From the NCBI GenBank assembly GCA_963703315.1, contig OY969811.1:2144001-2208000 (forward strand): a stretch of 64,000 nucleotides of DNA, read 5' to 3'. Made by a program: the position numbers. Below are positions 42,001 to 51,000 of the stretch, piece by piece. This DNA comes from an uncultured cyanobacterium. GTDB taxonomy: Bacteria; Cyanobacteriota; Cyanobacteriia; Pseudanabaenales; Pseudanabaenaceae. The first letter of the stretch is position 1, and each line of letters opens with the position of its first letter.

Positions 42001-45000
42001 TCGCTGACCCTCTGGGCGATGGGGATATCGTTTTGGGTAGTCATAGGTGTATAAACCTTTGAAGTTTTAAGCACGATTAATAAGCACAGTTAAATATATA
42101 GCAATAAATCTGGAAATTAGAATTCGCACAAAGTGGGAATTTTTGATTGACTGAATTAAAACCCAGAGAAATTTTTGAAAGCGCCGCTTCGCGGCGCTTT
42201 CAAAAATTTCTCTGTACTACTTCTAAAAGATTGCCATCGGGATCGTTTAAAAATAAGATTTTTTGTCCCCAAGGCATCACATTAGGTGGTGAAATTATAT
42301 CTACGGAAATATTAGCTTGTCGATCGCATATTTCTTGATAAACCTGATCCAGATTATTCACAGTCATCGAGAGTAAGAAAGGATGACCACTGATAGTCTG
42401 CTCACCGCGATCGCCAAATAATTTAGGTAACCAACTGCGATCGTATAGCCCAATTTTCAGCTTGCCGCTATAGCCCTCCGCACTATCAGGTTTGGCTGGT
42501 TTGTCAAACTGAAAGCCTAACACCTCACGATAAAAAATAAGCGATCGCGCTACATCAGCAACAAATAGAGCAATATAATCAATTTCCATCTCATCTAGCT
42601 CCTATAAAAACTAAAAATGGCGTTGCCATTTTTAGTTTTGAAAACCCTTACTGGATTTGGTTTTTAATTCACAAAAGTGTGCCACCACTTTTGTGAATTG
42701 GTACAGTTATGGATTTTCCTGCAAAATTGCTTCAGGGCGATCGCTTGTTAATTCATTTTTCAATCCATTTATCTCAACAGATGATGACTCCGCTAAAACT
42801 GCTGTTTGAGGAGGATTAAACTTGCCATTTTTCTCGTCAGGTAGCCATTTTAGAAATGGTAATGGTAATAGACTGCTGAGGTTCGCAATGACGATCAAAA
42901 TCCAGAGATTATCAAAATTAGATTCAGTCACACCGAGAAAATGGGTGAGTACAGCCCCTAATTGGAATGAACATAGGGCGGAGATATTAATCACTGACAT
43001 CAAAAGTGCAAATAAAGTTGCTTCGATACCTTCAGGACAGAGCCTTGCTGCCAAAACTAAAATAGGCATAAACGCAATTCTGCCAGCAACGGTCAAAATC
43101 AAGCTATCGCCAAGACTAAACCAGCGATCGTCAATGCCTAACGTTCTATTAGCATGAGTGACTAACAATAAACTAGTTAGTCCCAAAACAGTGGAAATAA
43201 TCGTTGTCCAAAAGAAAATTGTGCGGGTTGGCACACCTTTAAAAAAGCGTTGGAATAGCCACACTCCCAGAAGTCCTGCCCAACTCGCAAAAAATTTAAT
43301 TGTTCCTAAAAATTCTGGATTAAATTTCAGTTCATTGGTAGTGAAATAGAAAAAAGCGGTATCCGAACTGGGTGTTGCTTGCCAAATAAACAAGAAAAGT
43401 GTCGGTAGCCAAATTGCTTTATTGGTAAAGGCTTGACGCAACTGCCCAAAGTTGAACTTCAGCGACATCCATAGTTGCGAATTTCTCGATAAAGGTTTAG
43501 AAGTTACCGACTCTTGATTAGTTGTGGCATTAGTTGCTGCTGTGTCAGGAGCCACAATATGTACGTTAGACATTGGTGGATCAGCGATCGCAAAGGCAGC
43601 AATCCCCACTAGTAATGGTAGAAAGGCTGTAATCTCAAATACGAACTTCGCGCCAAAATGCTCCAATAAATAGCCACTCAAATATGCCGAGATAATTGCG
43701 CCAATTGATGAGGCAATCCAGCTAAAGGACTGCAAAGATCCTGCATCTCCCTCTGGTTCTAGTCTTGCGCGTTGGACAATTAGGGCATCCGTAATCGCAT
43801 CAGAAAAAGCTAGAGATAGTCCACCCAACGCAATCATCGCGATCGCCCAAAAGGGAGTAGTAACCCATATTCCCAAGCTCAACCAAGCAAAAATCCCTAA
43901 AACACTGGACAGCAACAGGTAAGGGCGACGACGATAGCCAAATATCGGCAATCCATCCGAAATCAGACCATAAAGGGGTTTAATCGTCCAAGGTAGCATG
44001 GTAATACCGACCATTGAAGCCACTTCCGCAGGACTTAATCCCAAATCATCTTTGAGGAAAAAACTCACGGCAAGCTGCGAGATCGCCATTGCCCCTTGTA
44101 CGAAATAAATAGTAGCGATCGCTGCCAACTCAAGGTCAAACGAGCGCCCCCGTAAACTTTTGAGCCAGTCTGATTGGATTAGCACTATAGGATTGCCCAA
44201 ATATTAAGAAATTTTAATCTCAGTATATTTTAGCCTTTATCGAAAAAATCATCAGAGCCACAATAAAGTTTTTAGGGCTTACACAAGAGTTAGTATCTAA
44301 TCGCCTATTCCATCAAATCAAACAGCGATAATTAAACACTATTTCTGATTATAATCAATATAAAAATTGTGGGCAAAATGTATGATTGCTACTATTGCAT
44401 CGCCTAGCCTATCACCTACAGAATATCTAGAGTGGGAAGTAACACAAGAAGATAGATATGAGTATGAATATGGAGAGGTTATCGAGGTAATAGGGGGGAA
44501 GCTTGAAAACAATGAAATTGCTCTTAATTTAATTGTACTGATCCGAAGTCATTTACGTGATAAAGGTTGTCGTATCCTTGGTGGTGATGCGAAACTCATG
44601 ACCATTCCGAGCAATGTTTATTACTTTCCTGATGTGGTTGTTAGTTGCGATTCTCGCGATCGCTATGCTAGAGAGTTTTTACAATATCCTTGTTTAATTG
44701 CGGAAGTCTTGTCCCCTGCTACAGAAAGTCGCGATCGCGGGATTAAGTTACGCAACTATCTCAAGATCGCTTCATTACAAGAATATATGCTCATCAATTC
44801 AGATTCTCCAAGTATTGAGTTCTATCGTCGTAGCGATCGTACAGAGGTTTGGGAATATCTAACAATCAATAGTTCAGATTTAACCGTTAACGATCCTGAA
44901 GTTCAACTAACTAGCATAGATTTTAATCTTCCGCTATCACTCATCTATGAAAATGTTGATTTTGAGTAGTCCTAATCGCCTATTTATCCACATCAAACAG

Positions 45001-48000: not shown

Positions 48001-51000
48001 AGAAGAATATATCGATCTAGATGAAGGTAAGAAGTTAAAAGCATCGGTTGTGGAACGCTTATTACGACAACAACATCAACCAACTATTATTCCTGCGGCT
48101 CAAGCTATGCAATCATTGGGGCTTAATTGGGATGAGTTATAGTATTGACTTTACTTCTGAGGCGATCGCTGATCTTGCAAAAATCGACCGCACTAATCAA
48201 ATACGGATAGCTCGTAAAATCAAGTGGTTGGGCGAAAATTTTGAACAAATTACGCCTCTATCACTTTCTGGCAATTTATCAAGCTTTTTTAAGCTGCGTG
48301 TTGGAGATTATCGAGTTCTTTACGAGATCGCGCAATCACAAAAAAGTCTCACTATTCATCAGATCGGACATCGCAGAGAAATTTATGATTAGATGAATGA
48401 TCGCCTATTTCCTCAACATCAAACAGCGATCGCCCCTCACTACCCACAAACCCGATCGCCTATCTCCACATAAAACAGCGATCGCCCATTTCCTCAACCA
48501 AAACAGCGATCGCCATATCAGTATTCGTCATCTTCTAAATCGATTTCTAGATCTGAAATCAAATCTTGTGTAACAGCATAGACATCTCGCTTATCACCTT
48601 CCTTACGCCTTCCTACACCCACGATAACTACCACTACTCGATCTTGTTCGATTCGATAAATAATCCGATAACGCTGTCCGACAGACCGAATACTACGATA
48701 ACCCAATAGTTCTTCAGATAAAGCCTTACCTTGTTTTTCTGGTTCATCCTTGAGCTTCTCAATCCTTTTCAAGATCACGCTTTGTTCGCGCCGATCCTTG
48801 ATTGCAGTAAACAGTTTCTGCGCTTGAACAGAAAAAATAATTCTATATTCCATAGCAGTATTAGAAACCCAACTCTAATTTCAAGGCTTCTAAACTAATT
48901 GTTTGTCCTAAATCTGCTTGTCGAATACCTTCTCTCAAATCTGCCATAAACTCGCGATCACTTAAAATCTCCATTGTTTCAACCAAGGAAGCAAACTGTT
49001 GCATACTCAAAGCAACAATTACAGGTTTACCGTCTTGCGTGATAATCGCTGGATCTTTGAGGTTCTTAGATAGCGCTGGTAATTGTTGCTGAGCTTCAGC
49101 AACAGTCAAATAATTAAGCATAATGTTTTTTGAGTGACTATTGTTATTTTAGTCAATTTCAAGTTATTTAAGATTGTACGATATCCAGTCAAGCGATCGC
49201 CCCTCATCACCCAAACCCCGATCGCCTAAATCTCAACATCAAACTGCGATCGCCCCTCATCACCCAAAACGCCCGATCGCCTATTCCCCAACAAACAGCG
49301 ATCGCTCCTCAACACCCAAAACCCGATCGCCTATTCTCTGCAAATCAACCAGCGATCGCACCCTCATCACCCATAAAACCCGATCGCCTATTCCCCACAT
49401 CAAACAGCGATCGCCCCTCACCAAACCTAAAAATTATTTGATAAAATCAGGTGTTAGTGTCAAAGAGGAAATATTTGCTATGAAAAGGGATATGAATCTA
49501 ATTCGTAAACTTCTTTTGCAGTTGGAAGAAGCGCCAGCAGAAGTATATGTATCAAATTTAGAAGTGGCTGGATATTCGGATGAAGAAATTGCTTACAATG
49601 CTTACCTGATGATTGATGGCGGATTGGCAGAAGGCAGACAGTCTAAACAAACTAATCAAATGGGAGATAGTTGCCCTGTAGCTGTGACCTTGACTAATTT
49701 AACTTGGGAAGGGCATGAGTTTTTTGACTCAATTAGAAATGATTCTATCTGGAAGAATACACTAGGCTATATCAAGGAAAAAGGTGGGAATGTTCCATTT
49801 AACTTAATACCGCCAATCGCAGCGCTTTTTGTCAAGCAACATTTTGGGTTGTCATAAGCTTAGAACAGGGAGTTATTGTTTGTAATTGTTGTTAGTGAGT
49901 TATCTGATTTAAAGGGGGTATCAAGTGGGGAAATCTAACTGGCGATCGTTTGAAGAGGCTCGTGCTTTTGTACATCAACTTCAACTAAAAAATGTAGCAG
50001 AGTGGAAGGCTTGGGCGAAAACTGAAGCAAAACCATCAGATATCCCTTGTAATCCCTATGGAGTCTATAAAGACAACGGCTGGATTAGTTATGGTGACTG
50101 GCTTGGCACTGGTGTAGTTGCATCTCAAAATTATACGTATTTATCATTTGCAGAAGCTCGTGATCTTGTCCATAAATTGCAGTTAAGAAATCAACAAGAA
50201 TGGAGAGATTGGGTCAAGACTGATGCTAAACCTGAATGTATGCCTGCCAATCCTTATGGTACTTATAAAGACAAAGGATGGCAAGGTTGGGGGGATTGGC
50301 TCGGCACTGGTAGACTTGCAAATCGGAATCGCACTTATCTTCCTTTTACAGAAGCTCGTATTTTTGCTCATCAACTTAGGTTAAATACTACTGAAGAATG
50401 GAAATTGTGGACAAAGACTGATGCTAAACCTGATAATGTACCTGCTGATCCTGCACGTGTATACAAAAGCAAGGGGTGGCAAGGTTGGGGGGATTGGCTC
50501 GGCACTGGTAGGCTTGCTAACCAGAATCGCATTTATCTTCCTTTTGTGGAGGCTCGTGCATTTGCTCATCAACTTAAGTTAAAGACTGCTGAGGAATGGA
50601 AAGTCTGGGCAAAAACTGACACTAAGCCTAATAACATACCTGCTAACCCTGCACTTGTATACAAAGACAATGGATGGATAGGTTGGGGGGATTGGCTTAA
50701 TACTGGAAGAATTGCCAACCAAAATCGCATTCTTCTCCCTTTCCAAGAAGCTCGTGCATATGTTCACAAATTAAACTTAAAAAGTAGGGAAGAATGGAAA
50801 TCTTGGGCAAGGAGTAAAGATAGACCTAGCAATATTCCTGCTGATCCATATAAAGCCTATGAAAAGGAAGGATGGTTAGGGTGGGGGGATTGGTCTGGCA
50901 TTATAAGCCGATGGAAGCCCAATGCTATCTTGAGTTTTCTATATAGTCTCAAGCCTATTTTATTTGGTTTGGAATCTGCTGAACTTTACGCCATCATGAG

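Follow-up and report, generated by a model that had tools for sequence, protein, structure and literature searches.

HIP1-anchored repeat arrays as putative polar joints of a toxin-antitoxin cassette system in a cyanobacterium of the Pseudanabaenaceae

In an uncultured cyanobacterium of the Pseudanabaenaceae (assembly GCA_963703315.1) and its Pseudanabaena congeners, small gene cassettes, among them toxin-antitoxin (TA) pairs, are modular, keep a fixed polarity relative to the HIP1-anchored arrays that separate them, stand in random order and are horizontally transferred. The repeats come in flavours with specific cassette pools, and the linkage between a cassette body and the adjoining repeat units is lost, the units not being inherited with the cassette. 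We propose that the arrays would act as polar joints at which gene cassettes recombine, in a system that has no integrase of its own. The window, i.e., the whole stretch of 64,000 nt analysed here (positions 2,144,001 to 2,208,000 of contig OY969811.1), contains one such island.

This island (window positions 44,299-49,412) consists of seven cassettes, six TA-type pairs and one Uma2 gene, set among eight arrays, with one array between each two neighbouring cassettes. As the first-pass annotation had stated, all eight arrays lie on the plus strand whatever the direction of the genes, which point both ways. The cassette string that it described is real, but its true start is about 680 bp further left and the string includes the Uma2 gene. 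The features are as follows (window coordinates, strand):

44299..44330, +, 5'-terminal joint, one A unit, cores degenerate
44367..44969, +, cassette 1: Uma2-family putative endonuclease, PADLOC PDC-S03-like (PF05685, E 1e-30; PDC-S03, E 2e-21)
44974..45005, +, joint, single A unit
45054..45658, +, cassette 2: DUF6883 + DUF4926, TA-type pair (putative TA role, from the pairing)
45687..45771, +, joint ABA, last core dead; B remnant from 45662
45773..46226, -, cassette 3: RelB-like antitoxin + YoeB toxin (PF06769, E 1e-34; PF18506, weak)
46259..46371, +, joint BABA
46386..46897, -, cassette 4: PBECR2/DUF4258-like gene + DUF2283, TA-type pair (toxin matches below cut-off, E 0.0016)
46981..47092, +, joint BABA
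47195..47687, +, cassette 5: BrnT toxin + BrnA-like antitoxin (PF04365, E 1e-23; PF14384, weak)
47700..47865, +, joint BABABA
47933..48392, +, cassette 6: small gene of no family + ParE/RelE toxin (PF05016, E 7e-11)
48399..48511, +, joint ABAA
48518..49121, -, cassette 7: Phd/YefM antitoxin + ParE/RelE toxin (PF02604, E 2e-10; PF05016, E 1e-7)
49195..49412, +, 3'-terminal joint, eight units BABABABA
49480..53494, +, right flank, beyond the cassette string: DUF2513 + 1,189-aa repeat/helicase/methyltransferase gene

Cassette 1 has homologues of 90-94% nucleotide identity in congeners, and cassette 4 is 96-99% identical in four of them. The DUF6883 gene of cassette 2 is frameshifted into two ORFs by a one-base gap relative to intact homologues of 112 aa, and domain searches matched no family to the 69-aa partner of the toxin in cassette 6. 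Cassette 3 is bracketed by a direct repeat identical at 70 of 71 nt (45700-45770 and 46300-46370). The assembled contigs of run X1, which may be the source sample, span most of the island without differences and are broken at the arrays; they contained no excision or circle joint, and the joints in contigs of runs X2-X4 had short sides lying in repeats and were set aside. No exact empty site was seen, and none next to the BT1 gene that flanks the island among 29 relatives, in which downstream synteny is not preserved and BT1 has an array alongside in no case (0/29). The helicase gene of the right flank also comes after arrays in two congeners bearing other cassette strings.

The association of arrays with TA genes, for which the earlier evidence was partly circular, was recovered with a rule that used no gene labels, though it was drafted after these arrays had been seen: 27 of the 33 genome arrays of at least two units adjoin TA or TA-like genes. 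The six others lie by an HNH gene at the end of a BrnT island (one), by DUF29 (one) or elsewhere (four). Arrays of a similar kind also border TA genes in further families of cyanobacteria. Two genomes of the genus g89 have two cassettes in common, in the same order and at 77%, and two others share repeats only; cassette shuffling outside Pseudanabaena was not demonstrated in the g89 genomes compared. No phage or viral contig bearing cassettes was found.

The arrays are made of two alternating HIP1-anchored unit types, as had been noted, but not of 28+28 bp: units of 25-29 bp sit between whole HIP1 sites, with medians of 28 bp (A) and 26 bp (B), and the period is therefore about 54 bp rather than 56. 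The A-to-B junction is GCGATCGC in 356/499 cases and the B-to-A junction CCGATCGC in 425/567. Unit spacers are G-free on one strand (G content <1%). Over the genome, 97 of 692 adjacent CGATCG pairs enclose a spacer without G on one strand, against 22±4 expected, and no G-free array occurred in the HIP1-rich genomes G057, G087, G161, G222 and G051, which have 21-67 triple-HIP1 clusters. Arrays hold 1-19 degenerate units that are about 80% alike, adjacent units being no closer (0.80) than random ones (0.79). There are 1,038 distinct units among 1,401, with a stable consensus, and this diversity could also arise by slippage in C and A runs. In folding, HIP1-HIP1 stems of 7-8 bp with open loops form from both array strands, the spacers having no hairpin of their own. 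By inspection, with no formal statistic, array strands alternate round the chromosome in no evident pattern. The array that closes an island at its 3' end has more units than that at its 5' end (6.4 vs 3.0; 18 vs 7 of 29 islands, P=0.003), a bias that symmetric exchange leaves unexplained.

The comparison among congeners covered 195 cassette copies, all distinct, of 472-932 bp and belonging to 38 families. Homologous cassettes faced the same way with respect to the repeat in 615/615 pairs, and in 829/829 pairs of a wider set, and cassette order was indistinguishable from shuffled (P=0.30). Flanks on opposite strands were seen in none of the 195 segments; in the wider set there were two, versus 322 direct. 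The direction of the genes within cassettes varies (24 vs 13 families). Cassettes are 92% alike between species versus 77-84% for a core gene (48/48). The first-pass view of mobile cassettes is thus upheld, with reordering between species at fixed polarity, as is the claim that homology ends at the arrays: at the bounding core, a distance of about 5 nt takes identity from 95-100% down to the background level. Cassette bodies show no real HIP1 depletion (1.20 per kb vs 1.35 in GC-matched windows). Different cassette strings were indeed compared downstream of rnc, but this anchor gene proved to be a patchy second paralog; its 19 relatives diverge mostly at one HIP1, and four of them pass directly into a cassette body without an array.

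Several repeat flavours coexist in a genome, each with a separate cassette pool. Homologous bodies agree in flavour in 787 of 829 pairs, and both flanks of a cassette are of the same flavour in 272 of the 275 classified cases. The region at 4,510-4,522 kb, previously listed with the other islands, is an array island, but of another flavour with its own pool.

The units behave differently from the bodies that they bound. When bodies were at least 97.5% identical, the neighbouring unit was at least 95% alike in just 3/23 cases on the left and 1/23 on the right, and at least 40 nt were identical on both flanks in 5 of 195 cassettes versus 0.5% of random array pairs. At its left edge the YoeB cassette has no GATC in 20/20 copies, i.e., the bounding HIP1 is dead; the unit beside it bears the array-wide alleles, is distinct in 18 of 19 cases and is 0.71 identical, versus 0.92 for the body. 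The left and right alleles of a single A unit show linkage equilibrium (p=0.87), and alleles on either side of a core show no linkage at all. Recurrence between genomes is more frequent for entire A units than for half-shuffled ones (146 vs 80-102); together with the nil linkage across cores, this suggests that crossovers may concentrate at cores.

We consider it somewhat probable that cassettes are moved by homology-driven exchange anywhere in the arrays, through host recombination with HIP1 as a hot spot. A cassette would be a body of 0.47-0.93 kb, consisting of a TA pair or a small nuclease gene and its own upstream DNA, and its gain, loss or move would result when strands are exchanged between degenerate repeats that share both flavour and direction. 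The host machinery (RecA, DprA and RadC, encoded in the genome, as is ComEC) would carry out this exchange, mostly on DNA from natural transformation, and the HIP1 found every 27 bp would serve as hot spot or register. In PCC 7002, HIP1 boosts transformation and behaves like a hot spot for recombination (10.1101/2024.09.10.611283). Orientation would be fixed because the spacers are strand-asymmetric, so that only same-facing arrays pair; each flavour would have its own pool because flavours differ; and units would be scrambled far faster than bodies diverge because exchange can fall anywhere in the array. The strings would be kept by TA addiction, perhaps by phage defence. The enzymes, the roles of HIP1 and of transformation, any circular intermediate and the selective benefit are inferred. 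Units about 80% alike are poor RecA substrates, and this counts against host recombination. So do the abrupt end of identity at the bounding core and the divergence of the rnc-paralog relatives at one HIP1, both of which a HIP1-cutting enzyme would produce, as well as the possible concentration of crossovers at cores, the 3' length bias and the finding of neither an excision joint nor an exact empty site. More tentatively, at rather less than an even chance, the HIP1-studded, one-strand G-free arrays may be region-specific joints of a host HIP1- or methylation-directed pathway, each flavour being a compatibility group with its own separate pool of defence and TA cassettes, shared horizontally, in a design recurring in several cyanobacterial families.

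Alternatively, an enzyme acting in trans would cut and join at HIP1 cores, matching GCGATCGC with GCGATCGC and CCGATCGC with CCGATCGC and shuffling units and cassettes as blocks, with cores possibly methylated or possibly folded into single-stranded HIP1-HIP1 hairpins. The abrupt loss of identity at the core, the single HIP1 at which the rnc-paralog relatives diverge and the stems formed by both strands are consistent with this idea, and so is the match between body ends and following units: an A unit comes after 20/21 bodies that end in CC, and a B unit after 55/67 that end in GC; HIP1-linked site-specific recombination has also been reported for PCC 7002, in a work cited in PMC4390886. We nevertheless consider it unlikely. 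Orientation is fixed though HIP1 is palindromic, so that spacers must matter, and flavour specificity requires them too. No recombinase gene travels with the islands. The genome has only two tyrosine-recombinase genes; a 507-aa two-domain one scores below the XerC and XerD cut-offs and, in 4/5 genomes from other families that carry arrays, has no close match. TetR-fused and double-domain tyrosine recombinases were rejected as drivers, being absent or unlinked. Four C5-methylase matches occur in the genome, none identified as the HIP1 methyltransferase. Because units are not inherited with the cassette and vary as much beside dead cores as anywhere, the data favour homology-driven exchange by host recombination over a site-specific enzyme at HIP1.

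The repeats could instead be selfish or hypermutable intergenic elements that grow by slippage at HIP1 near TA genes, with the TA pairs moving otherwise and the arrays being passengers or scars. Many TA pairs are indeed without such arrays (e.g., window 53,536-54,062); among 75 homologues of the window cassettes, 4 have none and 19 have one recognised array only; and Nostocaceae have a small repeat that targets HIP1, SDR5, according to a work cited in PMC5861425. This explanation is improbable: tandem slippage should leave adjacent units closer to each other than random ones, which they are not; as passengers, the arrays would be passed on together with the body, which they are not; and the fixed orientation with random order requires a joint.

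It is very doubtful that units are written de novo or RNA-guided (by a reverse transcriptase, an IS110 bridge recombinase or RAYT) or act via G-quadruplexes. The many distinct units round a stable consensus and the 3' length bias would suit such writing, but the repeats have no Rfam match, and reverse transcriptase and serine resolvase were rejected as drivers, both being absent from the genome. IS110 and RAYT were also rejected: seven identical IS110-type transposase copies lie apart from every array, and the one RAYT-like Y1 gene (349 kb) is flanked by its own unrelated palindromes. Four G3 runs are present in 53% of flavour-1 arrays but in 3% of those of flavour 2 and 7% of those of flavour 3, and the G-quadruplex model was rejected as not general.

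Of 48 genomes examined in the genus, 23 encode a true IntI; in this one (G000) there was no TIGR02249 match above cut-off, so that the absence of an integron integrase holds. The earlier term "integron-like" is right for the output only, because none of 20 congener intI loci examined has a HIP1 array and several carry ordinary attC. Here, paired attC core boxes occur in 0/7 island gaps, and a crude scan that finds attC beside congener intI detected no attC-like hairpin in the window island and six others. The reading of the arrays as CALINs, integron cassette clusters with atypical attC mobilised by IntI in trans, is thereby already largely refuted and most improbable; genes that face both ways and multi-unit joints also speak against it. 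In its favour are the integron-like size, content and polarity of the cassettes and the IntI of congeners.

HIP1 has had no demonstrated function for three decades (PMC5861425, PMC13756078). Here it stands every 27 bp in arrays that coincide exactly with the joints of a natural cassette system. The products of that system are legible in genome sequences, which provides a direct assay; the arrays may hint at a natural job for HIP1. If the more tentative reading is true, integrons and dif modules would be joined by another, third way of building gene-cassette arrays, and HIP1 would have a natural function. The system would also show that integron-like shuffling needs no recombinase dedicated to it, would account for some of the large TA content seen in cyanobacteria of bloom waters, and would supply short orthogonal joints for gene stacking in cyanobacteria.

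Integrons and CALINs, as outlined in PMC4889954, are likewise strings of 0.5-0.9 kb cassettes, many of them TA, with fixed orientation, variable order and spread across species. Relative to that outline, our arrays lack IntI, attI and attC, have joints of 1-19 units not inherited with the cassette, genes facing both ways and several incompatible joint flavours, and are separate from the congeners' true integrons. Neisseria NIME arrays (dRS3 with RS spacers) and minimal mobile elements are also dynamic intergenic arrays with a palindromic core and variable spacers, in a naturally transformable host, and were proposed to aid exchange of adjacent DNA, homologous or site-specific (PMC1797815). In that account they occupy syntenic sites and favour the replacement of surface-gene alleles around a dRS3 core, whereas our arrays have HIP1 as core and polar, G-free spacers, and lie between discrete cassettes that differ in order and in locus. 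The Acinetobacter dif modules (XerC/D, pdif) are small, often TA, and shuffled without a module-encoded recombinase; according to PMC13141974, pdif are single XerC-spacer-XerD sites, alternately inverted, with inversion allowed, whereas our joints are direct and multi-unit and no inversion was seen among the cassettes. HIP1 has been reported at other recombination or insertion junctions, namely the smtB deletion, PCC 7002 plasmid recombination and SDR5 (PMC4390886, PMC5861425, PMC13756078). As described there, these are single events, laboratory plasmids or, for SDR5 of Nostocaceae, a 21-nt insert within HIP1, and none is a cassette pool with tandem HIP1 arrays; our units lie between whole sites. 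We found no account of such a HIP1-array cassette system in the literature searched. Unlike REP/BIME elements with RAYT, the array spacers form no hairpin and the sole Y1 gene has other palindromes, and unlike those of a CRISPR array they are mutually homologous and of two alternating types. Immunoglobulin switch regions likewise consist of degenerate tandem repeats with strand asymmetry and many copies of a palindromic motif, and their joining is specific to a region rather than to a site; being eukaryotic, AID-dependent and deletional, they offer an analogy only. Measured against the defining features of every family considered, the system would stand apart, with a mechanism that we infer.

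The island in the window is real: between 44,299 and 49,412, seven gene modules alternate with eight short arrays of HIP1-anchored repeats. All eight arrays lie on the plus strand while three of the modules are read from the minus strand, which upholds the proposal of the first-pass annotation that arrays share one direction whatever the orientation of the genes. The modules are, in order:

Module 1: Uma2
Module 2: DUF6883 (frameshifted) and DUF4926
Module 3: RelB-like gene and YoeB
Module 4: PBECR2/DUF4258-like gene and DUF2283
Module 5: BrnT and BrnA
Module 6: small gene without assigned family and ParE
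Module 7: Phd and ParE

Within the arrays, A units (median 28 bp) alternate with B units (26 bp), the A-to-B junction being GCGATCGC in 356 of 499 cases and the B-to-A junction CCGATCGC in 425 of 567. G makes up less than 1% of the unit interiors on the displayed strand. Genome-wide, 97 of 692 adjacent CGATCG pairs enclose a spacer that is G-free on one strand (expected 22 ± 4). A rule combining HIP1 spacing and G-poor spacers, which uses no gene labels and was devised after these arrays were known, recovered 33 arrays of at least two units in the genome. Toxin-antitoxin (TA) or TA-like genes adjoin 27 of them; the others lie at an HNH gene ending a BrnT island (one), at DUF29 (one) and elsewhere (four). 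Beyond the island, the window encodes a 1,189-aa protein (49,925-53,494) with five 66-aa N-terminal repeats, an SNF2-like helicase and a C-terminal methyltransferase, whose homologues of differing length follow arrays at two other loci (L033 and L035). The window also carries a contractile-injection-system-like cluster (13,750-24,465) that comprises gp25, DUF4280, VgrG-like and two tube genes and a 2,271-aa protein without Pfam match.

The mobility of the modules as cassettes is well supported. The island matched all 36 congeners searched and, weakly, 11 of 24 other genomes, with alignment ends clustering at the arrays. After removal of 110 exact duplicates, the loci analysed yielded 195 distinct inter-array segments (472-932 bp) in 38 families, 30 of them with at least two members, and no segment had flanks on opposite strands. 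Orientation relative to the repeat strand was conserved in all 615 homologous pairs, which are non-independent, and in every family. Among 138 adjacent cassette pairs 126 were distinct, the 13 repeats being close to the shuffled value (11.05 ± 3.2, P = 0.30), and 14 family pairs occurred in both orders; in one congener (L031), a string comprised 20 consecutive cassettes. The pool consists of TA pairs of many families, together with Uma2, DUF29 and small nuclease-like genes. A recognised array stood on both sides of 48 of the 75 homologous copies of the seven bodies in the window (cassettes without their arrays), on one side of 19 and on neither side of four; the remaining four sit at contig ends. 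The window cassettes were 92.2% alike to their congener copies at the nucleotide level, against 77-84% for the flanking core gene BT1, and scored higher in 48 of 48 comparisons; this excess between species indicates horizontal transfer. Neither an excised circle nor an exact empty site was seen in the assembled contigs and the BT1-flanking loci of relatives.

The same array design with other spacer sequences (other "flavours") recurs at further TA islands of the genome, at 4,510-4,521 kb, 3,586 kb, 3,671 kb, 1,370 and 4,367 kb, among others. A three-unit flavour forms a 14-unit array at 1,371.8 kb (L055:3778-4300) and, at 4,367 kb, surrounds a related BrnT/BrnA pair. Left and right flanks belonged to one flavour in 272 of 322 segments, differed in three and were unassigned in 47, a count that excludes two more segments with opposite-strand flanks. 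Among 829 pairs of homologous bodies at least 85% alike, 787 had a common flavour and all had a common orientation; a single family was clearly present in two flavours. Since sampling was seeded from islands of this genome, the sizes of the flavour pools are lower bounds. In two congeners (L012, L045), bodies of flavour 1, the type of the window island, lie between arrays of a drifted variant, which suggests that flavours can diverge within one lineage.

A search of 185,579 species genomes with the exact flavour-1 pattern gave 68 stretches, of which 60 carry the title Pseudanabaena and eight come from cyanobacterial MAGs with a generic name or none. A generic array pattern occurred in 16 of 16 congeners, in none of three other genera of the family and, outside the family, in 24 of 231 genomes; some genomes had no generic array despite many triple-HIP1 clusters. 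In several other families, arrays flank HicAB, BrnT, ParE, HigAB, PemK, XisHI or Uma2 genes on a single strand per island; the evidence for reshuffling comes from Pseudanabaena. Three arrays adjoin HigAB and PemK genes on a Pseudanabaena plasmid, and a search of phages and viral contigs gave no matches.

HIP1-anchored repeats containing G exist too, so that the arrays without G may form one part of a broader class of joints. One such flavour, a 37-bp repeat, occupies five places in the genome, in two cases immediately following an A-type unit. Another TA cluster of the window (27,300-36,200; DUF433/DUF5615, PIN and PemK), with a 300-nt duplication of a DUF433 gene, contains two families of G-containing direct repeats:

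About 27770, 28983 and 29674: first family
About 33002, 34569 and 36090: second family, including a 74-nt exact pair

As to the enzymes, the genome has no IntI, reverse transcriptase or serine resolvase. It has two tyrosine-recombinase genes, one of which (1,754 kb; L067:6115-7638) encodes a 507-aa protein with two integrase domains. Counterparts of 510-535 aa occur in many congeners, four of five array-positive genomes of other families had no close match, and the protein possibly serves the chromosomal Xer function. No recombinase gene recurred next to islands among the flanking genes scanned. Seven identical copies of an IS110-type transposase lie away from the arrays; one (347-349 kb) adjoins the single RAYT-like Y1 gene, which is flanked by its own long palindromes. 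ComEC, DprA, RadC and RecA are present. True IntI was found in 23 of 48 Pseudanabaena genomes, several of whose loci have ordinary attC hairpins. Arrays of at least two units occurred at none of 20 congener intI loci, several of which end at contig ends, and the ordinary integrons (L363, L364, L365, L374, L382) are separate from HIP1 arrays. A crude scan, which finds attC hairpins at congener intI loci, found none in seven HIP1 islands.

The units themselves are diverse (1,038 distinct among 1,401), with a likeness of about 0.79-0.81 whether neighbours, units of one locus or units of different genomes are compared, and those flanking homologous cassettes are scarcely more alike than those flanking unrelated ones. 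Even beside bodies at least 97.5% identical, the adjoining unit was alike at 95% in three of 23 pairs on the left and one of 23 on the right. Within some 5 nt of the core (the HIP1 or near-HIP1 site bounding each unit), identity has fallen almost to background, leaving a small excess of 0.03-0.04 (permutation p = 0.036 right, 0/500 left), and junction type is conserved at body ends (20/21 and 55/67). Taken alone, this sharp loss and the conserved junctions would fit joints made by cutting at HIP1. However, none of the 20 copies of the YoeB cassette has GATC at the left edge, and yet the adjoining unit was distinct in 18 of 19 and 0.71 identical, against 0.92 for the YoeB body; units adjoining a ParE variant were likewise distinct in six of six.

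In A units, the left allele was unlinked to the right one (p = 0.87) but partly linked to the middle one. Two findings speak against purely uniform exchange: complete A units are met again in other genomes more often than half-shuffled ones (146 versus 80-102), and there is no linkage across cores. Downstream of the rnc gene adjoining the island near 442 kb, relatives diverge mostly at a single HIP1, some entering arrays; four pass directly into a cassette body and one has about 55 nt of degenerate array in common with this genome. This rnc (L052:4208-4888), a second RNase III paralog of patchy occurrence with two copies in some congeners, terminates at HIP1 in the fashion of a cassette body. 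From the unit variation beside a dead core, the allele linkage, the recurrence of whole units and the rnc divergence points, we infer that strand exchange would be homology-directed along the whole array and concentrated at HIP1. The 3'-terminal arrays exceed the 5' ones (6.4 versus 3.0 units; 18 versus 7 of 29 islands, a few of other flavours), a bias that symmetric exchange would not produce.

The literature searched, with most subscription papers outside its scope, held no account of cassette arrays bounded by HIP1 repeats; the repeat catalogues of Elhai 2008 may bear on novelty. According to Kamoku and Nielsen (10.1101/2024.09.10.611283), transformation is increased by HIP1, which may act as a non-canonical hot spot of recombination. 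HIP1, SDR5, the smtB deletion and the RadC correlation are treated in PMC4390886, PMC5861425 and PMC13756078, as are CALINs in PMC4889954, dif modules in PMC13141974 and NIME arrays in PMC1797815. The HIP1 islands resemble integron cassette arrays in their output and NIME arrays in their joints, but differ from both in the features that define them. A further analogy is offered by switch regions, to which the arrays may be likened.
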